In this document: piece after piece, positions 7,332 to 21,890 of the stretch
Numbering within the stretch: position 1 is the stretch's first letter
Layout of the letters: each line of letters opens with the position of its first letter
Assembly: GCA_003144275.1 (NCBI GenBank)
Contig: NJBF01000038.1
Span: forward strand, 1-32,000
Direction: 5' to 3'
DNA length: 32,000 nucleotides
DNA from: Candidatus Heimdallarchaeota archaeon B3_Heim
GTDB lineage: Archaea > Asgardarchaeota > Heimdallarchaeia > Hodarchaeales > Hodarchaeaceae
The notes under the pieces: model-generated
What the model was told of the DNA's origin: nothing
Databases searched by the model: none
What the model saw: only the letters and a program-made list of their open reading frames with translations
Position numbers and translations under genes: made by a program

Positions 7332-10300
7332 ATGTCCACAGAAGAGGAAATGCCAGAAAAAGAAAAGAAAAAGGAACGAGAGGAACAAACAGAGGAGCAG
7401 AGAGAGATATTCACTGAAATAGAGGAAAAATTACTTGCTGAAGGCCCATACAACGATCAAACCATCGTTGAAGCGGAAAATATGGAAATTTCCGAGTCAT
7501 CCCCTCCGGAAGAGATTAATGAGAAGCCTATTGATGACCAAAAAGAGCAGAACATTGAGGATTATGCACTGCGGGAGAATCAAAAGGAAGAAATCAAAAA
7601 GATAGAAGCTAGCTTAGTAACCATGGCAGAGGAAGGGTTTAACGATCAACAGGTAATTTATGAGGAGGAGAGAGAGGAATCAACAAGTGAGCATGTTACA
7701 TCCCAGAAGGAGCAGTTAGGGGAGCAGATAGAAGAGAATAATGAAAAAGTACAAGGAATTGAAGAAATTCCACTTACCCCAGAAAAAAATAGAGATCAAA
7801 TTCAGGAGGAGGTGGAAACACCAAACGTTTTGGAGGTAGAAAGACGTGGAGAAGGTTTAGAAGAATTAGAGACAGTCGTATCAACACAGGAACGCTTCAC
7901 TGATCAACAAATTGTCTGGGAGGATGAAACGCAGAAAGATAGAGTTGTAAAGCTTAGGATCCAAGATAAATCAGATAAAAAAGATATTTTGTTTGAAAAG
8001 AACAGGAGAGAAGCAAATAAGGAGGATGAGAGGCGGTCGCAAAGCCAGATAGTACAGGAGGCTCGTGGACTAAGTAGAGAGGAAACAAAACAGAAAAATA
8101 TCAAACAAAAATCAACACACAAAGAAGAAAACGATACTAGACTATCAGTAATTCAAAGTGGACAACAAGCAACCCAAACAGGGACACACTCAGATCTTAC
8201 AATCCTAGCAAGAGAGTGGAATCAATACATAACAAATGGAGGAAGAATAACAGTAGATATGTGGGAGATATATAACAATATACAGGAGAAGTACAATAAG
8301 CCAATTGTCTTGTACAAAGAAGATGAGGAAATAAATACCTATAGAATGAGCCCAAGTGGGAAATTGTTTTCCCAATTAGATGCTAGTCTATTTAATGAAC
8401 GATTAAGTAACCCCTCCAAACAAATTTCCAAATTACTTGATTATTGGTTAATCCAGAGAGGGAAAAAGGAAGGAATCAAACCGTTTTTTGAAGTTACAAT
8501 TGAGAATCCCAATACTAAAGAAATGGAAACATATTGGATTCCGAATGCGAGACAAAGGGTTTGGAACCCATATGAAGGGAAGGATCAGCGTTTTTTCTAC
8601 GGCCCTCGTTCTGCTGGACGGATGATTACAAATTTCCTGACTGATAAGGTAAGATTATCTCAAAGCAACTTCAATGTGTACTTAAAGTTGGAAGAGAATT
8701 TAAGAATGAAATTCCCTAAATTGGGTATTCAGACTGGAAATATGAGTTTTAACGGCCAGAAAATCTTGTTCAATACGTTTAATAGGTTAAAATATTCAAG
8801 AGAGGTGACAGAAGAAGTAATTCAACTGTTATTCTGGAAATATGTCGATTCACACTCCAAAAGATATATTCAGAATTCTTCTCTCAAAATATCAGAATTA
8901 GTGGAATACTGCAAAGAAAATGAAATTACAGGGAGAAAAAACATTACTCAGATGAAAATATTCGTTCCCAAATCTAATCCTGTTATTCTAAATAATACAA
9001 TGGAAAATAAATTAAATAATGCAATGAATAAACCTTCGACTTCAGGTAGAAATAATGAGCTAACACACAAACCTAAGCTACAAATTGTAACAAAACCGAA
9101 AGATACAGAGGCCTATATAAGTTCTAGACCCATTGTGAAAAACTTATTAACAACTCTTAAGATAATTGAGGATAATTTTGGAATAAATGGTCTTTCACCA
9201 GCATATAAACCACCTAAAAATCTTATCCTCAGTTATGATAATTCTAACAAGAATAAATTAATTATAAACGCAGAATCTGCTGATGATAAAGATCTAGCCC
9301 ATTTTCTACTTGAAGGATTTCAATTGTCATCTAGAAGTAAGACCGCAAAAGGAGCCTTTTGGTTTGGAAAAATTATGCATCCAATGAAAGGAAAAAGTAA
9401 AAATGAGTGGCACAAATTTACGAGCTTTTTGAAATCACGTTCTGAAAGAAAGATTGAGAATCATGATAAATGGTACTCTAGTAAACATGCGGGAGGAGAG
9501 AAAACTGTGAGAAGGAGAATAAATGTTGAAATCGATATTAACGGGTTTAAATTGCTAAAAGCAGAATTAATGGATAATGCGGTATCTCTGGCGAATGATA
9601 GCAGCCATAGAATATGGGTGAAACAGACTCGAGCTGATGCTAGAAGGAATAAAAATCCTACTGATGCACTTAAGCGGGCTGAGGAAAACATTCAATGGTG
9701 GAACAGCATTCGTACATTAGTACCAATTGGTTCTGAGAACTATCAAGAACAAGCATTATTGTATCTTATGAATATTAAAAAATCAGCCGATGAGAGTCTT
9801 GGTAGAACCATTATATCTCAGAAACTTACTAATATTGAATTTTCAAAAATAACACAGGAATTAGAACAAATTTCAATCAGAGAGGTGAAAGACGTAAAAA
9901 CTTCTAAGTTAATGACATTGCATGAGGTGATCCCAGTTGAAGAGAGTCATCGTATAGGATCAATGGGATATGCCTTTGATGTTTTTAACGAACATCTCGG
10001 TGCAAATATTGGTTTTAAGGCTCAATTAGCTTTTATGAACAAGTTTTGTCCTTCTCAAAGTCCACTAGCTGAATACTTGGGATTGGATAAGATTAAATTA
10101 AGGGGTTGTGAAATTGAATTAAAATGGGGTGATCGTAAAGGATATGCAAATACTGGTTTAAGCATGACTGACACTTTCGCTCCAGACGTAATCATAAAGG
10201 ATAAATCAGGAAATCTGTTAGCTGTTATCCAACTGAAGGGTTATTCACAAACTAGAACTAGTATACAACCCAATGTTTCAGTAATCCAATTATTAGAACT

Positions 10301-10850
10301 TCTAAAATACAGAAAAAACCCAGCTATTAAAACAGCTTTAGTCAATGTTGATCAAATTGATGATTTCATAAGATATGAATGGCTTGTATCTGCAAAATAT
10401 CAAACTCAACAAACAGATCAAGTTATGGAAAGAATCAATCTTTTAAAAGATGGTTTCAGCAAACATCCTGAAATTGACCCTCTCATTCCTAAGAATTTGA
10501 GAAAAAGAGCATTTATCGAAGGTATTTATGAAAAAGCAATCGATGCAGACTCACAATATATATTTGAGAAAGAAATGGACAATATAAAAACCCAGATTCA
10601 TTCCTCCGAGGAAAATTTCAACCTATTTATCGGACAGAAGGGGAAAAATACAATAACTGACAAAGTAGTAGAAAATTATATTGGAGGCATTCAAGAGAAA
10701 CTGCAAAAATTAATTAACCAGATAGGCCAACCTGATGGAATTGAGTCCATTGGGCAATTTAGGTATCATTGGGGGAAGATTGTGACCTTGGATTATTATA
10801 GGAGAATTCAGAAGTATTTTCGGATTTTTCCCCAACAAGATAAAAAATGA
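7332..10850 (+). CDS. Large hypothetical protein: Glu-rich disordered N-terminus, basic middle, C-terminal PD-(D/E/Q)xK-like nuclease domain
   Basis: 1172-aa ORF. The first ~280 aa are very E/Q/K rich. FAPDVIIKDKSGNLLAVIQLKG at 10176-10241 resembles a PD...QxK (Mrr-type) catalytic motif. Confidence 0.55.
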   Translation: MSTEEEMPEKEKKKEREEQTEEQREIFTEIEEKLLAEGPYNDQTIVEAENMEISESSPPEEINEKPIDDQKEQNIEDYALRENQKEEIKKIEASLVTMAEEGFNDQQVIYEEEREESTSEHVTSQKEQLGEQIEENNEKVQGIEEIPLTPEKNRDQIQEEVETPNVLEVERRGEGLEELETVVSTQERFTDQQIVWEDETQKDRVVKLRIQDKSDKKDILFEKNRREANKEDERRSQSQIVQEARGLSREETKQKNIKQKSTHKEENDTRLSVIQSGQQATQTGTHSDLTILAREWNQYITNGGRITVDMWEIYNNIQEKYNKPIVLYKEDEEINTYRMSPSGKLFSQLDASLFNERLSNPSKQISKLLDYWLIQRGKKEGIKPFFEVTIENPNTKEMETYWIPNARQRVWNPYEGKDQRFFYGPRSAGRMITNFLTDKVRLSQSNFNVYLKLEENLRMKFPKLGIQTGNMSFNGQKILFNTFNRLKYSREVTEEVIQLLFWKYVDSHSKRYIQNSSLKISELVEYCKENEITGRKNITQMKIFVPKSNPVILNNTMENKLNNAMNKPSTSGRNNELTHKPKLQIVTKPKDTEAYISSRPIVKNLLTTLKIIEDNFGINGLSPAYKPPKNLILSYDNSNKNKLIINAESADDKDLAHFLLEGFQLSSRSKTAKGAFWFGKIMHPMKGKSKNEWHKFTSFLKSRSERKIENHDKWYSSKHAGGEKTVRRRINVEIDINGFKLLKAELMDNAVSLANDSSHRIWVKQTRADARRNKNPTDALKRAEENIQWWNSIRTLVPIGSENYQEQALLYLMNIKKSADESLGRTIISQKLTNIEFSKITQELEQISIREVKDVKTSKLMTLHEVIPVEESHRIGSMGYAFDVFNEHLGANIGFKAQLAFMNKFCPSQSPLAEYLGLDKIKLRGCEIELKWGDRKGYANTGLSMTDTFAPDVIIKDKSGNLLAVIQLKGYSQTRTSIQPNVSVIQLLELLKYRKNPAIKTALVNVDQIDDFIRYEWLVSAKYQTQQTDQVMERINLLKDGFSKHPEIDPLIPKNLRKRAFIEGIYEKAIDADSQYIFEKEMDNIKTQIHSSEENFNLFIGQKGKNTITDKVVENYIGGIQEKLQKLINQIGQPDGIESIGQFRYHWGKIVTLDYYRRIQKYFRIFPQQDKK
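7449..7928 (+). repeat. Three dispersed copies of a short peptide motif in the acidic N-terminus
   Basis: YNDQTIVEAE (from 7449), FNDQQVIYEEE (from 7638) and FTDQQIVWEDE (from 7896). Confidence 0.6.
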
Positions 10851-10909: not shown

Positions 10910-12127
10910 ATGGAATTAACATCTGAAGAACAAGAGATGGCGGCAGGGAAACATGGCAAAGCGGCTCAAACGGCCATGAACATTTTAGTAACCTTGGGTG
11001 AAATTTACGGTGCGAAAAAACTTATTGATATTACCTCGGTTCAAATAGCTGGCGTAAGCTACGCAAATTTGAATGAACCCGGGTTAGCATGGTTAGAAGA
11101 AATGGCAAAAGACGGAAAAGTTAGAACTTTCACCACTTTAAATCCTGCTGGAAAACTTAATAGCTAGACAATAGCTATTAGGTCCAGAATGGATTTAGAG
11201 GAATGGCGTAAGTTAGCTATAAGTGAGGAGTTTGCAGAGAACCAGAAAAAGGTCGTAGAGGCATTTGGAGCCCTCGGAGTTATTACTACCTGCTCATGTA
11301 CTCCCTACCTATATGGTAATCTTCCTGCATACGGCCAGAATATCGCATGGAGTGAAAGCTCTGCTGTTTGTTACGCTAATTCTGTATTAGGTGCAAAATC
11401 CAATCGTGAAGGTGGACCAAGCGCCTTGAGTGCAGCACTTGTCGGAAAGACTCCTGAATATGGATTTCACCTTCATGAGAATCGTCAACCAGAAATCAAA
11501 GTCGATGTACAGTGTGATGTGAAGAGTACGTTTCGATTTGGTGCCTTAGGAAAAGTACTTGGAGATCGTTTCGGTAAAAAGATTACGTATATTGCTGGAA
11601 TCTCCAAGGCTTCGGTTGAAGAGCTAAAATCATTTTGTGCCTCATATGCCACTTATGGTGGTGTTGCATTATTTCACATGGAAGATATTACTCCGAATCG
11701 AGTTGATAAAATCCCTGATACGGTAGAAACTGTTACTGAGGATGATATGAAGAAGGCTCTTGGAGATTTAGACGATGAAACCGAAATAGATTTCATCAGT
11801 TTGGGTTGTCCTCATGCTTCACTAAAGGAATTGGAATACATCGCCAAGAAATTGGAAGGAAAATCCATTAATCCAAAGAAAGAAGTATGGATCACCACTG
11901 CTCGACCAACTAAGCAAATCGCTGACCGAATGGGATTTACAAAACTAATTGAAGATTCTGGTGCCAAAGTTGCAGCAGATACATGTTGTGTTGTAGCACC
12001 AATCAAAGGTCGATTTCACGGTTTAGCGTCTGATTCGGCGAAAATGTGTTATTATGGATCTGGACGCAACAAGTTCGCGGTAAAATTAATGTCAATGGAT
12101 GAATGTCTAGAGGAGGCTTTATCATAA
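10910..12127 (+). CDS. acnX1: Phosphomevalonate dehydratase large subunit (aconitase X, AcnX type II), join(10910..11153,11190..12127), 393 aa after removing a 36-nt insertion
   Basis: The two track ORFs (10895-11167, 11189-12127) are in the same frame. Motifs: SVQIAGVSY, TTLNPAG|MDLEEW, Fe-S ligand motifs TCSCTPY, LGCPH and DTCCVV, and NREGGPSAL. GTGGAG SD-like sequence precedes ATG 10910. Confidence 0.92.
11154..11189 (+). other. Candidate bulge-helix-bulge/loop (BHB/BHL) pre-mRNA intron, 36 nt
   Basis: Exon-exon helix 11136-11145:11191-11200 (10 bp, one G-U); 2x3 internal loop UG/AAU; 4-bp central helix CUGG:CCAG (11148-51:11184-87); 3-nt bulge AAA (11152-54); 12-bp intron stem 11155-66:11172-83 with loop GACAA. 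In-frame TAG at 11165-67. Cutting after the 2nd nt of each bulge gives GCT GGA ATG GAT (A-G-M-D). Confidence 0.85.
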
Positions 12128-12516
12128 TGAAATTAACAGGTAGAAAAATTTTCAAAGGCAAAGCTTCTGGTGAGGCTTTAGTTACAAAGGATAGCATCTC
12201 ATTTTATGGTGGGGTTGATCCAGAAAATGGTGTTGTCGTTGAAAAAGACCATGAATTAGAAGGTATCAATATCAATGATAAAATTCTAGTTTTTCCTTCT
12301 GGTAAAGGATCTACAGTAGGATCTTACGTTATTTATCAAATGGCTATGACAGGAAAAGGGCCCAAAGCTTTAGTACTTAATGATTGTGAAGCCATCGTTG
12401 CAGTAGGGACGATAATTTCGGAGCTTCCCTGTGTAGATCAAATAGATGTCACTAAAATCGAAACTGGAATGCAATTAAACGTTGATGGTGAAAACGGTAT
12501 AGTAGAGATACTTTAA
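12127..12516 (+). CDS. acnX2: Phosphomevalonate dehydratase small (swivel-domain) subunit
   Basis: GEALVTKDSISFYGGVDP and LVFPSGKGSTVGSY motifs. ATG at 12127 overlaps the acnX1 stop (TAATG) and has GGAGG upstream; the track start at 12103 is probably too far upstream. Confidence 0.92.
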   Translation: MKLTGRKIFKGKASGEALVTKDSISFYGGVDPENGVVVEKDHELEGININDKILVFPSGKGSTVGSYVIYQMAMTGKGPKALVLNDCEAIVAVGTIISELPCVDQIDVTKIETGMQLNVDGENGIVEIL

Positions 12517-12523
12517 CATCTCT

Positions 12524-13638
12524 CTACCCTTTTTCTATTTTCATTCCTTCACTCGAAAATTCGATATCAATGGGCATTATCCCATTTTTTATCCATTCCT
12601 TGACAATTAATGCTGCATTAATTGCATTGAAACATACTCCTACACTGCAGTCTCCACCCCCTGCGCCTGAAAATTTTGCCACTGCTCCATATTTTGATGC
12701 TGTATGACTCATAATTTGATGGGCTTCAATTTCTAGGTGACAGGAGCAGGCGAAACTTAATTCTTCTAATAAAATTCTATTTTGGTCGAGTAATTTCAGG
12801 ATAGCTACTTGGTTCTTGGATTGGATGGCTTCAATTAATTTTTCAGTCACATCCGCAATTCTAGAGATAATAGTATAATAACTATCAGGATCTTTTTGCT
12901 TATACAGTTTCATTTCTTGGACTAATTTCTTTGTAGAAGCACTCGTGCCAGTAAATCCTACCATCATAACAAGATCGGCTGGTAAATTAATTGGGATGCA
13001 TTGTAATAGAGGCCATTCTTCATTAACTAAATTACTCTGAGAGTCAGTTGATATCTTTTGTTGTAACCATTCAGGATCAAACTTTCTGTAAATAAGTGCT
13101 CCTCCGAAAGTGGATGCAGCGACATCAAACCCAGATCCGAGTTTTCCTTGCCCCAAGTAATGCGAGATTATACTCAGTTTAAATATTGCTTCTTTATCCT
13201 GTTGTGTGAATGAAGAGTTCGAATGGTATTGAATTACAGCACCAATAATTGCTACTACTGCCGCCGCGCTACTCCCGAATCCTACCTTCATTTCTTTTCC
13301 TGTTTCCTCATTTTTAACCGAGCTGATATCACCCCAGGTTTTCAAGTGGAACGGTTGTATCGGGATGTTTCTTGCCTCGAGATACCGTAGCGCAGATTCG
13401 ATGGCATACTTAGTAAATATAACTCTTGTATCTTCACTATCAATGGAAAGAGTCCCCCCAGAGTAGAAACATTTCGAGGATAAATTGAAATCATTCAGAC
13501 GGATTGAAATATGGTCATCAGGTTGAATTGCAGAAAAACTCTCTGTTGAACTGCAAGGACTATACATCTAACATTTTTCTCTAGGATACTCCATTCACCC
13601 GAGAGCATTAATTTTCCAGGAGCCGAAACTACAATCAT
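12524..13638 (-). pseudogene. mvaK2: Phosphomevalonate kinase (GHMP, Gram-positive mvaK2/ERG8-like) with a single-base frameshift near codon 35; pseudogene, recoded gene or sequencing error
   Basis: The true N-terminus MIVVSAPGKLMLSGEWSILE...LAVQQRVF starts at ATG 13638 (GAGGT SD 6 nt upstream) in a different frame from the track ORF. One extra T in the minus-strand T5 run (plus A5, 13534-13538) joins it to SAIQPDDHI... Body motifs: KVGFGSSAA, GSGFDVAAS, KFSGAGGGDC. Confidence 0.85.
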
Positions 13639-13659: not shown

Positions 13660-14652
13660 TCAAAATAAGTGATCCTCGGTTAATCTTGCCTCTTTACCTG
13701 GATGGCAAATAATTATATCTTTAACTAAATTTATTTCTGTTACCCTAGATTTTATTGTTTCTATATCTTTTTGTTGACAGAGAATTTTCACCTGTGGTCC
13801 TGCATCCATAGTGAAGTAGCATTCAATTCCCTCTTCTCGGAGTTTCAGTACCTCTTTCATAATAGACAATGATCCTGCTTCCCAATAAATAATAGGAGGA
13901 GTTGTTGTCTGCATGGTTGCGTGCATTTTAATAGCATTTAATTCAGCGATCTTTCCTAATTGAATAAAATCCTTTTCTGAGATTGCTTGTTTCATTTTCT
14001 CCACATCAGATTCAATCGTGTCTAACCATGCACTATAAAATGGAGAATTCTTCACCGTTTGACTCATTCCTGCACGGGAGGAGACTTTTTTCTCTTCACT
14101 TGAGATAATTGTTACAATCATAGATAATTCTGGCCAATGAGCTTCTTTCTCTATTTGGAGTGCATAGCTATCTGAGCCATCTGACATGGAACCTTTGGTC
14201 CACTCCACAAAGCCTCCTAGAATACTTCTGGAAGCGCTTCCACTCCCTCGTCTTGCAAGAATGCTTAAATCTTTCACGGTGAAATCTTGACCTAAGGCTT
14301 TTGTCCCTGTTAAAGTGAGAGCTGCAAAACCAGAGGCCGAACTAGCTAATCCAGCTTTCTTAGGAAAATTACTTTCACTCATAACCTTAGCAAATATCTT
14401 GTGGGGGGATGATTTTTGTAATAGCTCCAGATGATTCGCTACTCTAGCCAACTCTTCACCTTTTACTACCTTTCTATTGATGGTTACCTCGTACTCTGAT
14501 AAAGTTTTATTAAATTCAACTGTTGTCTTAGTATTAAGATTATTCAATGTCATTGAAACACTCGAATTATAAGGTAAAATTAAATCGGAGTTTCTTTTTC
14601 CCCAGTACTTTACTAATGCAATATTGGAATTTGCAATTGCAGTTGTTTTCAT
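13660..14652 (-). CDS. mvaD: Diphosphomevalonate decarboxylase
   Basis: ANSNIALVKYWGKR, AGLASSASGFAAL, ARRGSGSASRS and YFTMDAGP motifs. Likely start MKTT at 14652. The adjacent PMK favours diphospho- over monophospho-specificity (inference). Confidence 0.88.
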   Translation of the reverse strand: MKTTAIANSNIALVKYWGKRNSDLILPYNSSVSMTLNNLNTKTTVEFNKTLSEYEVTINRKVVKGEELARVANHLELLQKSSPHKIFAKVMSESNFPKKAGLASSASGFAALTLTGTKALGQDFTVKDLSILARRGSGSASRSILGGFVEWTKGSMSDGSDSYALQIEKEAHWPELSMIVTIISSEEKKVSSRAGMSQTVKNSPFYSAWLDTIESDVEKMKQAISEKDFIQLGKIAELNAIKMHATMQTTTPPIIYWEAGSLSIMKEVLKLREEGIECYFTMDAGPQVKILCQQKDIETIKSRVTEINLVKDIIICHPGKEARLTEDHLF

Positions 14653-14786
14653 TAGCATCATAACCATAAAGAATGTGTAGAACAAAGATTAATTAGTCAA
14701 TCTATGTTAAAATGATTTATTCATAATGAAGTTATTTCCGTAGTAGTATTCTATTAAATGTAAGAATTTCTAGTGTTTATTCTGTA

Positions 14787-15380
14787 TTGGAGAATGTATT
14801 CTTGAAATCTAAAAAAATTATTGTCGCTTTAACAGGTGCTTCTGGAATAGATTATGGAATTGAAGCAATTAGGGCTCTATCATCTCATGATGTCGAAACT
14901 CACGTCATTATTAGTAAGTGGGCGAAGCAAGTGATCGAAAAAGAATCATTTAACACATTAGATGATTTTCAAAAGTTACCTGATTACATGTATAAAGAGA
15001 ATGATATGAGTGCAGCAATTTCCAGTAGTTCTACGATACTTGATGGTATGGTTGTGATTCCAGCCACTGTTAAGACTGTTAGCAATATTGCAACAGCTAA
15101 TACTGGAAACTTAATTTCTCGAGCAGCAGATAATATGTTAAAAATGAAAAAACCACTAATTATCGGTATTCGAGAAACTCCGTTAAGTCCTGGATGTCTA
15201 CACAATCTAAATCAGCTTTCCTTGTATGGTGCGATCGTTCTACCTTTGAGTCCTGGATTCTATCACCGTCCTAAATCTATACAGGATTTATTCGATTTTA
15301 TTTCGGGAAAGATATTGGATTGTTTCAATATACCCAATGATAAATATACACGATGGAATAGTGTCATACAATCAGAGTAA
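14787..15380 (+). CDS. ubiX: Flavin prenyltransferase UbiX
   Basis: IIVALTGASG, PATVKTVSNIA, SRAAD, IRETPL and PGFYHRPKSI motifs. TTG start is uncertain. Confidence 0.92.
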   Translation: MENVFLKSKKIIVALTGASGIDYGIEAIRALSSHDVETHVIISKWAKQVIEKESFNTLDDFQKLPDYMYKENDMSAAISSSSTILDGMVVIPATVKTVSNIATANTGNLISRAADNMLKMKKPLIIGIRETPLSPGCLHNLNQLSLYGAIVLPLSPGFYHRPKSIQDLFDFISGKILDCFNIPNDKYTRWNSVIQSE

Positions 15381-15422: not shown

Positions 15423-16559
15423 ATGGAATCTAAGACCTCACCTCACGAAATTGATGAGAAAAAAGAAACAACAATTACTTCTGAACGAAAACTTGCCCAT
15501 TTACAGATTTGTCTTGAAAATGATGTTCAAGGCCGTAATATCACCACAGGCTTGGAAGATATTTCCTTTGTGCATCACGCGACTACTGATCTCAATATGG
15601 AGGATATAAATTTATCAATAGAGATTTTCGGGAAAAAATTACGATTTCCAATAATTATTTCGGGAATGACTGGCGGTCATGCCTTTTCCCAGCAGTTAAA
15701 TGATTATCTATCTCAAGTAGCAGAAAAAACACAGATAGGTATGGGTGTTGGAAGTCAACGGGCTGCCTTGGAAGATGCTCAAGCACGTGAGTCGTTTGAA
15801 ATTGTAAAAAATAATGCCCCTACAACCCTTAAGATTGGAAATATAGGTGCAGGACAAATAGTAGATGGTTTAACGTCCCCGGACTTGAAAGACATTGTTT
15901 CTATGATAAATGCGGATGCAGTAGCATTCCATTTTAATCCATTACAGGAATCTATTCAACCTGAAGGTGATACAAACCTTCATGGACTGATAGATCGAGT
16001 TTCACAACTGATCGATGTATCCCCGACTCCGATCATTGCGAAAGAGGTAGGTTCAGGGTTTAGTCGGTTTGATATTGATCGTATAGAGAAATCAGGGTTT
16101 GCAGGAATTGATATTCAAGGAGCAGGGGGTACCTCATGGGCTGGTGTCGAATCTATCAGAGCAGAAGTTCCAAAATATAAAAAAACAGGGGAAATATTTT
16201 GGGATTGGGGATTACCTACAGCTATTAGCACCATTTTTGCAAAGGAATCATTTAATGGACATATTATAGGATCAGGAGGCGTCAGAAACGGATTGGAAGT
16301 TGCTAAACTACTCGCACTCGGAGTAGATGCAGCAGGGATGGCCATTCCATTCCTATTTGCTGCACAGGATCATTCAATAGAAAAATCCCTAAAATATATC
16401 GAAGAAATCGCATATCAAATTCGCCTTGCCTGTTTTTTAACAGGATCCCAAAGCATTGAAGAATTAAAATCCGTTCCTCTTATCATCTCTGGAAAAACAG
16501 CTGATTTGCTAAGAGCTTTTGGAATTGACCCAAGAGAGTACTTTTCTCGACCAAATTAA
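15423..16559 (+). CDS. fni: Type 2 isopentenyl-diphosphate delta-isomerase (FMN-dependent)
   Basis: RKLAHL, ISGMTGG, GVGSQR, HFNPLQESIQPEGD, KEVGSG, GAGGTSW and SGGVRNG motifs. Confidence 0.96.
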   Translation: MESKTSPHEIDEKKETTITSERKLAHLQICLENDVQGRNITTGLEDISFVHHATTDLNMEDINLSIEIFGKKLRFPIIISGMTGGHAFSQQLNDYLSQVAEKTQIGMGVGSQRAALEDAQARESFEIVKNNAPTTLKIGNIGAGQIVDGLTSPDLKDIVSMINADAVAFHFNPLQESIQPEGDTNLHGLIDRVSQLIDVSPTPIIAKEVGSGFSRFDIDRIEKSGFAGIDIQGAGGTSWAGVESIRAEVPKYKKTGEIFWDWGLPTAISTIFAKESFNGHIIGSGGVRNGLEVAKLLALGVDAAGMAIPFLFAAQDHSIEKSLKYIEEIAYQIRLACFLTGSQSIEELKSVPLIISGKTADLLRAFGIDPREYFSRPN

Positions 16560-21514: not shown

Positions 21515-21890
21515 GTGAGCATCGCTCCAATGAGTAATCCAGCTTCTGTTCACCTAAATAAGTCACCTAATTTAGGTTCCTGACATCAACCTAAGCGCAA
21601 CTCTCCTAGATCTTGTGAAAGATCAAATGCTCTGCTTGCATTCACCGAGGGTGTTCGTCTCATCGATTCCTTATTCGTCCTCAAGAGCTTAAATAATCGT
21701 GTGTTACCACAGACTTCACTCTATCATCGCCATCTGAATAAGGGCGTGTCGTTTCTGTAACAGAGCCCAACCTCTCGATTGACAAAGATTTTTCCAGGAA
21801 GGAAAAGCCTCTGTTCGGCATGAAAGAATGGCTGGAATTTCCTCAGATTCTCTATGAAATCCGAAGTCAGGCTGTTGCTTCGATGCCCAC
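21515..21890 (-). ncRNA. rnpB: RNase P RNA, archaeal type A (~376 nt)
   Basis: Minus strand: P1 GUGGGCAUCG/CGAUGCUCAC, P2 CCUGAC/GUCAGG, P4 5' GAGGAAAUUCCAGC and 3' AACAGAAGCUGGAUUA, plus ACAGAAACG, GAUGAGACG and UGCAAG conserved regions and a k-turn-like CGAUGA/UGAG in P12. Confidence 0.93.

Follow-up and report, generated by a model that had tools for sequence, protein, structure and literature searches.

An archaeal metabolic gene that is open on both sides of a 36-nucleotide (nt) interruption raises a question with several possible answers: the extra bases could be removed from the messenger RNA (mRNA), kept as a spacer between two polypeptides, or be the mark of a gene that has failed. 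Such an interruption lies in the large-subunit gene of aconitase X (acnX, PF04412) in a 32,000-nt stretch (hereafter the window) of contig NJBF01000038.1 from Candidatus Heimdallarchaeota archaeon B3_Heim, an Asgard archaeon of the Hodarchaeales. The assembly carrying the window, labelled G000 (other G-numbers denote genomes of relatives), comprises 103 contigs and 3.95 Mb, with a completeness of 94%. An original prediction, made from the letters of the window, read the insert as an intron of the bulge-helix-bulge (BHB) or bulge-helix-loop (BHL) kind. Following up that prediction, we consider it likely that the 36 nt are a relaxed-BHB, tRNA-type intron of an mRNA, spliced by the tRNA-intron endonuclease EndA together with RtcB. 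The anatomy of the insert, its conservation and covariation, its precise presence and absence among relatives, the purifying selection on its host gene and the genes for both enzymes are direct observations, set out below.

A 36-nt insert interrupts acnX within a conserved motif

The acnX large-subunit gene occupies 10910–12127 on the forward strand and is interrupted at 11154–11189. Two open reading frames (ORFs) in the same frame cover it, one from 10910 (10895) to 11167 and the other from 11189 to 12127, and the first closes at an in-frame TAG (11165–11167) inside the insert. The Pfam AcnX profile matches the first piece at positions 1–82 and the second at 83–400; because the numbering runs from 82 directly to 83, the break removes nothing, and it sits within a conserved motif between adjacent profile positions. 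Alignment with insert-free orthologues places exactly 36 extra bases in the G000 gene. ORFs, Pfam and alignment thus agree with the predicted arrangement of two in-frame acnX ORFs held apart by 36 nt with a TAG. Excision of 11154–11189 yields ...CCU GCU GGA AUG GAU..., encoding ...TTLNPAG↓MD... (the arrow marks the junction) in a protein of 81 + 312 = 393 amino acids, which bears out the claim that the BHB cut rule restores this protein with no extra residues.

G000 holds a single acnX copy, and the insert sequence occurs once in the genome, which rules out a repeat element. Among solved structures, PDB 7cnr is nearest to the second piece (8.7e-75). Judging from protein family and gene neighbourhood, acnX probably encodes a phosphomevalonate dehydratase; no NCBIfam equivalog matched the large subunit at or above its cut-off.

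The insert and its flanks fold into a relaxed BHB motif

The minimum free energy (MFE) of positions 11126–11210 was –32.3 kcal/mol, compared with a mean of –14.5 for shuffled sequences (z = –6.5), and none of 200 shuffles was as good. The fold comprises a 10-bp helix between the two exons, a 2x3 loop (UG/AAU), a central helix (CUGG:CCAG), a 3-nt bulge of A residues, and an inner stem capped by a GACAA loop, so that every element listed in the original prediction is present. In BHB introns, cleavage occurs after the second nucleotide of each bulge (PMC2738675). The strict hBHBh' definition does not describe the acnX insert in full: its 5' half is canonical (CUGG/CCAG, AAA bulge, 12-bp h'), and as a whole the fold corresponds to the relaxed motif (HBh'/BHL), with at least one bulge, a 4-bp helix, a flanking helix, and a second cut placed symmetrically in the loop. 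The BHB/BHL reading therefore stands in its relaxed form rather than its strict one, and every comparative test that we ran favoured it. When five other insert variants (described below) were each folded alone, the MFE architecture of G000 recurred in four (five of six including G000).

The outer helix is not peculiar to interrupted genes. It was already present when an insert-free gene (L005) was folded, as the L-N-P codons can pair with those for M-D-L, and this pre-existing complementarity between the exons may be a reason why an intron persists at the acnX site. Group I and group II introns, inteins and known RNA families were also considered and rejected, as the insert is only 36 nt long and nothing in Rfam matched at the locus.

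Fourteen variants of the insert occupy one site

In a congeneric comparison of 21 genomes plus G000, an insert was found at the same acnX site in G000 (36 nt), contig 7 of G018 (36 nt), G013 (36 nt), contig 145 of G014 (34 nt) and contig 158 of G018 (34 nt). It was exactly absent from 14 fully aligned congeneric orthologues, some of them 93% and 90% identical to the G000 protein; two more copies, in G014 and G021 and visible only around the junction, lack it as well. Class-level relatives had no insert at this site.

Two of these genomes hold paired acnX copies. G018 carries the 36-nt form on C7 and the 34-nt form on C158 (contamination of this metagenome-assembled genome, MAG, 4%), and G014 carries a 34-nt form on C145 and an insert-free copy at the end of contig C358 (contamination 8%). 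These pairs are either paralogues or the products of two co-binned populations.

Further variants came from metagenomes and protein clusters. A pattern scan of metagenomes gave four matches, one of which was a true 37-nt variant (L047, Ga0114925_10091846, reverse strand, about 730–850); the other three were chance matches in unrelated high-GC DNA. The acnX of L047 ends 38 codons into exon 2, where it abuts an unrelated gene on the opposite strand, and since it must be either a truncated copy or part of a chimeric contig, we give this variant little weight. Among the 63 closest acnX protein clusters, about 19 (~30%) are proteins of 312 or 313 amino acids that start at the Met of the motif. All eight such short proteins with retrievable upstream DNA carry an insert (29, 34, 29, 29, 34, 34, 34 and 36 nt); a 310-residue protein, P0073, starts at a contig end and is uninformative on this point. 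Gene callers thus do conceal the interrupted gene, as had been proposed, by annotating about 30% of close acnX clusters as 312-residue fragments. As a separate observation, an acnX large subunit 58% identical to that of G000 lies on CAZJMV010000097.1 (L043), from a MAG titled uncultured Anaerolineaceae bacterium.

In total, we recovered 14 distinct variants (29, 34, 36 and 37 nt), all at one site, in Hodarchaeales genomes and metagenomes. Their occurrence in 14 independent assemblies counts against an assembly artefact; the original prediction had already discounted a homopolymer sequencing error. In all 14, cutting by the BHB rule brings back ...TTLNPAG↓MD... in the correct reading frame.

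These lengths also bear on translational recoding, in which ribosomes would either read through the TAG or bypass the insert in the manner of T4 gene 60. The G000 insert is in frame, elsewhere in the genome aragorn predicts a CUA-anticodon tRNA, and a hairpin follows the GGA codon as in gene 60. However, the lengths of ten of the 14 variants are not multiples of three, and G013 has TAA; read-through and any in-frame insertion are excluded because the 29-, 34- and 37-nt variants break the frame, and read-through would moreover insert 12 residues into a conserved motif. Bypassing was rejected as well: with GGA at 11150–11152 as the take-off codon, the only downstream GGA (11191–11193) is out of frame, and the protein is not restored. 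We regard recoding as scarcely credible.

Exon 1 and the insert evolve under shared constraint

The core of the motif is kept throughout. All 14 variants have CUGG, a 5' bulge of AAA or AAU, NNAG, the AAU loop and at least three pairs of the exon helix. When the inner helix was anchored at the core, 105 of 137 cells were paired (77%), compared with 25–43% when the partner was slid by one to three positions. C:G, U:A, A:U and G:C exchanges occur at several inner-helix positions across the variants. In MAFFT alignments of five and six sequences, four inner-stem pairs showed changes on both sides, and the covariation score was beaten by only 13–21 of 500 shuffles. The comparison of relatives that the original prediction had proposed has therefore yielded 14 variants, at least 16 precise absences and compensatory changes in the stem.

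The protein is also under selection. Between insert-bearing genes, the ratio of nonsynonymous to synonymous substitution rates (dN/dS) was 0.02–0.07 in both exons with dS above 1, and the two 34-nt-insert genes compared with each other gave 0.041 (dS 1.5). Because dN/dS is low at dS above 1, these genes must have been functional for a long time with the insert in place. The insert itself is conserved beyond silent sites: pairs with inserts of the same length shared a mean identity of 78%, compared with 48% at four-fold degenerate sites of the same genes, and the insert was the more conserved in 24 of 24 pairs.

These results leave little room for a non-functional insertion, whether in a decaying pseudogene, as a small mobile element or as an artefact of assembly. 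The premature stop, the truncation of the L047 copy and a redundant classical mevalonate pathway (see below) would all suit it. Against these stand the saturated dS with low dN/dS in both exons, full-length copies free of other disruptions, an insert more conserved than synonymous sites, and the fact that the interrupted gene is the only acnX copy in G000, and we judge this explanation highly improbable.

Constraint extends from the insert into exon 1. Among the five insert-bearing genes, seven of 117 four-fold degenerate sites were invariant, and three of these fall in adjacent codons, 79–81 (CCU GCU GGA), and these codons supply the loop, central-helix and bulge bases. The hypergeometric chance that seven invariant sites among 117 would include codons 79–81 is about 1e-4. 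In 14 insert-free genes, by comparison, none of 98 four-fold sites was invariant, and codons 79–81 varied in 13 of the 14. On these alignments, the frozen synonymous sites in exon 1 are the signature of an RNA-level constraint between that exon and the distal end of the insert.

In a protein tree, insert-bearing genes were scattered, and at least three to four changes are required to explain their distribution. G013 is sister to the insert-free G003 (support 98/97), and the gene on G014 contig 145 is sister to that of the insert-free G009. Because the inserts are clearly homologous, this scatter points to repeated precise loss or to exchange by recombination; a similar pattern of loss or exchange has been argued for the cbf5 intron (PMC2738675). 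As far as sequence comparison can tell, the intron family is old within the genus that includes Ca. Hodarchaeum, and has been precisely lost or exchanged several times.

The genome encodes a splicing endonuclease pair of probable broad specificity

Two tRNA-intron endonuclease paralogues (PF01974) are encoded in G000. The closest match of the 182-residue protein is the catalytic subunit of Aeropyrum pernix (3P1Z_B, 8.5e-43); the alignment is gap-free through the N-terminal region of 3P1Z_B, the Y/H/K residues are aligned, and we class the protein as alpha-like. The 215-residue paralogue gave a weaker match and is beta-like. RtcB is encoded as well. Asgard EndA has been described as an (alpha-beta)2 enzyme with an L1 loop that goes with relaxed substrates (PMC5829648), and two EndA paralogues have been reported in 44 of 60 Asgard genomes (preprint 10.64898/2026.10.13.758758). 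The G000 pair would fit an (alpha-beta)2 enzyme with the L1 loop, a type assigned following PMC5829648. The subunit check suggested in the original prediction thus came out as an alpha-like plus beta-like pair, the broad-specificity type by that scheme.

Four clear canonical tRNA introns of G000 follow the same cut rule, and their bulges (UA↓A, AA↓A, AA↓G, AU↓A; arrows mark the cuts) are rich in A, as is that of acnX; we used these four as whole-genome aragorn calls are unreliable for multi-intron tRNAs here. An intron-containing tRNA called by aragorn on contig C10 (37765–37873), with CUA (amber) as its anticodon, has two alternative BHB registers giving different mature lengths, so that the anticodon is uncertain.

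We propose the following course of splicing. Naturally complementary exon codons for L-N-P and M-D-L would form the outer helix; CUGG in exon 1 and CCAG at the 3' end of the intron would form a 4-bp central helix, with the remaining intron as a hairpin. The heteromeric (alpha-beta) endonuclease would then cut the 5' bulge at AA↓A and the symmetric place in the 3' loop at AA↓U, and RtcB would join the exons into an mRNA for the uninterrupted 393-residue protein, releasing a 36-nt intron that would probably be circular. The predicted junction peptide from the joined mRNA is TTLNPAGMDLEEWR; an N-terminal fragment made from unspliced RNA would instead end in ...NPAGKLNS.

A sediment metatranscriptome contains a joined junction

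No public sequencing run contained more than 19% of the sampled words, and little of the acnX locus was found in any. We compared contigs from four runs with the locus, and both informative contigs came from X7, a sediment metatranscriptome, as assembled contigs rather than reads, at a depth of 2 and without a matching DNA control. One contig matches 11187–11326 with 11 differences (92% identity to exon 2). Ahead of this match it has AAATCCTGCTG, so that it runs from 11140–11153 straight into 11190, as predicted for the spliced junction. Over that exon 2 stretch, the identity of 17 other aligned orthologues to G000 reaches 78% at most; the source of the contig is therefore a relative much closer than any of these. 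The second contig is identical to 11009–11153 at 144 of 145 positions; its match ends exactly at 11153, and six more letters beyond that point are incompatible with the intron. Both contigs match what splicing predicts, which is suggestive and not proof. The junction in this one library is the single observation that bears on cleavage and ligation in the cell, steps that we otherwise infer.

Splicing compared with a split gene

Several observations weigh against splicing. The MFE structure slips by one A:U pair relative to the fold originally predicted, giving a 5-bp central helix and an 11-bp stem in place of 4 and 12 bp, and this register would shift the frame; the 4-bp/12-bp register uses the same bases, is the BHB register and restores the frame. 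The predicted 3' cut falls in the 2x3 internal loop (UG/AAU), without a clean bulge. Seven of the 14 variants carry ACAG, which places a G.A mismatch in the central helix, and in these an A-to-U change in the bulge favours a shifted register (3-bp helix, GAA bulge) that would break the frame under the simple rule. Either the endonuclease accepts the mismatch register or these genes are not spliced; they are under strong purifying selection all the same. The classical mevalonate route is also encoded, and acnX may therefore be non-essential. The X7 junction contig is 92% and not 100% identical, and could derive from a relative that lacks the insert and has not been sequenced, or from DNA present in the library; in the runs compared, no DNA contig or read of this strain bridging the insert was found. 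Lastly, every one of the 14 variants has the native ATG as the start of its second ORF, most with a GGU 8–10 nt upstream, so that, from the sequence, translation into two polypeptides is possible.

This last point belongs to an account in which the insert stays in the mRNA, a fragment of about 85 residues and a 312-residue C-terminal fragment (from ATG 11189) assemble with the small subunit, and the hairpin is a structured intercistronic spacer. Frame-breaking insert lengths would then be harmless, purifying selection on both halves would be expected, and a central helix that is imperfect in half of the variants would be of no consequence. What it leaves unexplained is why exon 1 has three frozen synonymous sites whose pairing partners lie at the far end of the insert, why the 4-bp-plus-bulge geometry is invariant and the protein exactly restored in 14 of 14 variants, why the 5' half of the insert covaries, and how a joined junction came to be in an RNA library. 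Nor does it account for the unconserved ends of the N-terminal fragments, which run for 4 to ~15 residues to a stop of variable position; the break also falls inside a conserved motif between adjacent Pfam positions. The ATG is always there, with a weak GGU upstream; yet the two sides of the spacer co-evolve. We consider a split gene, the main rival, unlikely, and an intron removed by EndA and RtcB remains the explanation that we favour.

No second intron emerged from a limited genome scan

The original prediction had suggested that the insert would point to wider mRNA splicing. We scanned G000 for BHB-like motifs with all four pairs of the central helix formed, h and h' of at least 4 bp, at most two unpaired nt opposite each bulge and an intron of 15–100 nt, located where two open frames, each of 70 codons or more, abut; such a scan misses relaxed helices and short exons. 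The acnX locus was by far the top match (h 10, h' 12). At h + h' of at least 12, the scan gave 30 matches, compared with ~17 in controls in which the length was changed by 1–2 nt, a small excess; a control that shifted both cuts together was uninformative by construction. Five short candidates were rejected as ordinary gene boundaries by Pfam (for example, Top6A ending at 167/170, phosphoenolpyruvate mutase at 237/240 before a citrate synthase that starts at position 1, and LMWPc ending at 143/144). This limited scan thus found no second protein-gene BHB intron in G000 and did not support, for this genome, the suggestion of wider splicing; the insert sequence has no other copies there.

A broader proposal is that EndA-mediated mRNA splicing is regular and evolutionarily dynamic in Hodarchaeales, that the acnX intron is ancient, vertically inherited and often precisely lost (for example through copies of spliced mRNA), and that splicing may gate the choice between the two lower mevalonate routes whose genes share this cluster. 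We put this forward tentatively and think it rather doubtful.

Gene neighbourhood and other features of the window

Genes of the mevalonate route lie next to acnX (Table 1), and a UbiD homologue lies on another G000 contig, C80. It thus seems that the organism has genes for both lower mevalonate routes, classical and archaeal, and we therefore did not use essentiality as an argument.

Table 1. Coordinates of the acnX intron, its structural elements and neighbouring features in the window (arrows mark predicted cuts).
Feature	Position	Strand	Evidence or remark
1172-residue ORF, Glu/Lys-rich N-terminal third	7332–10850	+	No Pfam match at E 0.01
acnX large subunit, exon 1 (81 full codons and first base of Met codon)	10910–11153	+	Pfam AcnX 1–82; MELT... 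start common to orthologues
Exon-exon helix h, 5' strand (L-N-P codons)	11136–11145	+	Pairs with 11191–11200 in MFE; innermost three pairs in 14/14 variants
UG, unpaired 5' side of 2x3 internal loop facing 3' splice site	11146–11147	+	UG in 13/14 variants, CG in 1
Central helix H, 5' strand CUGG (exon)	11148–11151	+	Invariant in 14/14; its synonymous positions vary freely in insert-free genes
5' bulge AA↓A, predicted cut between 11153 and 11154	11152–11154	+	AAA or AAU in every variant
Predicted 36-nt intron (BHB rule)	11154–11189	+	Precisely missing in insert-free orthologues
Inner hairpin h', 12-bp stem (11155–11166/11172–11183), loop GACAA (11167–11171)	11155–11183	+	Fold
In-frame TAG within predicted intron	11165–11167	+	ORF translation
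Central helix H, 3' strand CCAG (intron)	11184–11187	+	CCAG in 6, CUAG in 1 (G:U kept), ACAG in 7 (G.A mismatch)
3' splice-site loop AA↓U, predicted cut between 11189 and 11190	11188–11190	+	AAU in 14/14 variants
acnX large subunit, exon 2, including stop	11190–12127	+	Pfam AcnX 83–400; PDB 7cnr, 8.7e-75
Exon-exon helix h, 3' strand (M-D-L-E codons)	11191–11200	+	Pairs with 11136–11145
acnX small (swivel) subunit gene, overlapping exon 2 end	12103–12516	+	PF01989; NCBIfam PRK03955 above cut-off
Phosphomevalonate kinase	12524–13567	-	TIGR01220 above cut-off
Diphosphomevalonate decarboxylase	13660–14685	-	TIGR01240
UbiX	14787–15380	+	
Type 2 isopentenyl diphosphate isomerase	15423–16559	+	
Archaeal RNase P RNA	21523–21882	-	RF00373, 128 bits

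Comparison with known systems

In the literature that we searched, splicing of archaeal protein-coding mRNA by the tRNA endonuclease has been confirmed for cbf5 only (PMC2738675). The acnX insert would be a second well-supported case, this time in a metabolic gene and in Hodarchaeales, the archaea placed nearest to eukaryotes. Its 14 diverged alleles, with their precise presence and absence, offer a natural system for intron gain, loss and constraint, and the insert is a short, defined substrate with which to explore the substrate range of Asgard EndA, including the G.A-mismatch forms.

Asgard tRNAs with non-canonical and multiple introns (bioRxiv 10.64898/2026.10.13.758758, citing Valentin-Alvarado 2024) share with acnX the presumed machinery and the motif. 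The host RNA of the acnX insert differs in being an mRNA, so the exon half of the motif must be built from codons, and that preprint reports no introns in protein genes. The nearest parallel is the cbf5 intron of the crenarchaeal Desulfurococcales and Sulfolobales (Yokobori et al., 2009; PMC2738675; also the studies of Watanabe and Yoshinari that it cites), which is likewise short, lies in a conserved protein motif, has a relaxed ('unconventional') BHB at its borders and is cut between the second and third bulge residues. It too is found with a heteromeric endonuclease and is patchily distributed, close relatives having gained or precisely lost it (PMC2738675). The two differ in that cbf5 encodes an RNA-modification enzyme of Crenarchaeota whereas acnX encodes a metabolic enzyme of Asgard archaea, the Hodarchaeales, and in that splicing of cbf5 was shown by complementary DNA and in vitro cleavage (PMC2738675) whereas for acnX the hint comes from an RNA-library contig. 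The acnX intron is very probably of the same kind as that of cbf5, in a new gene and a new lineage.

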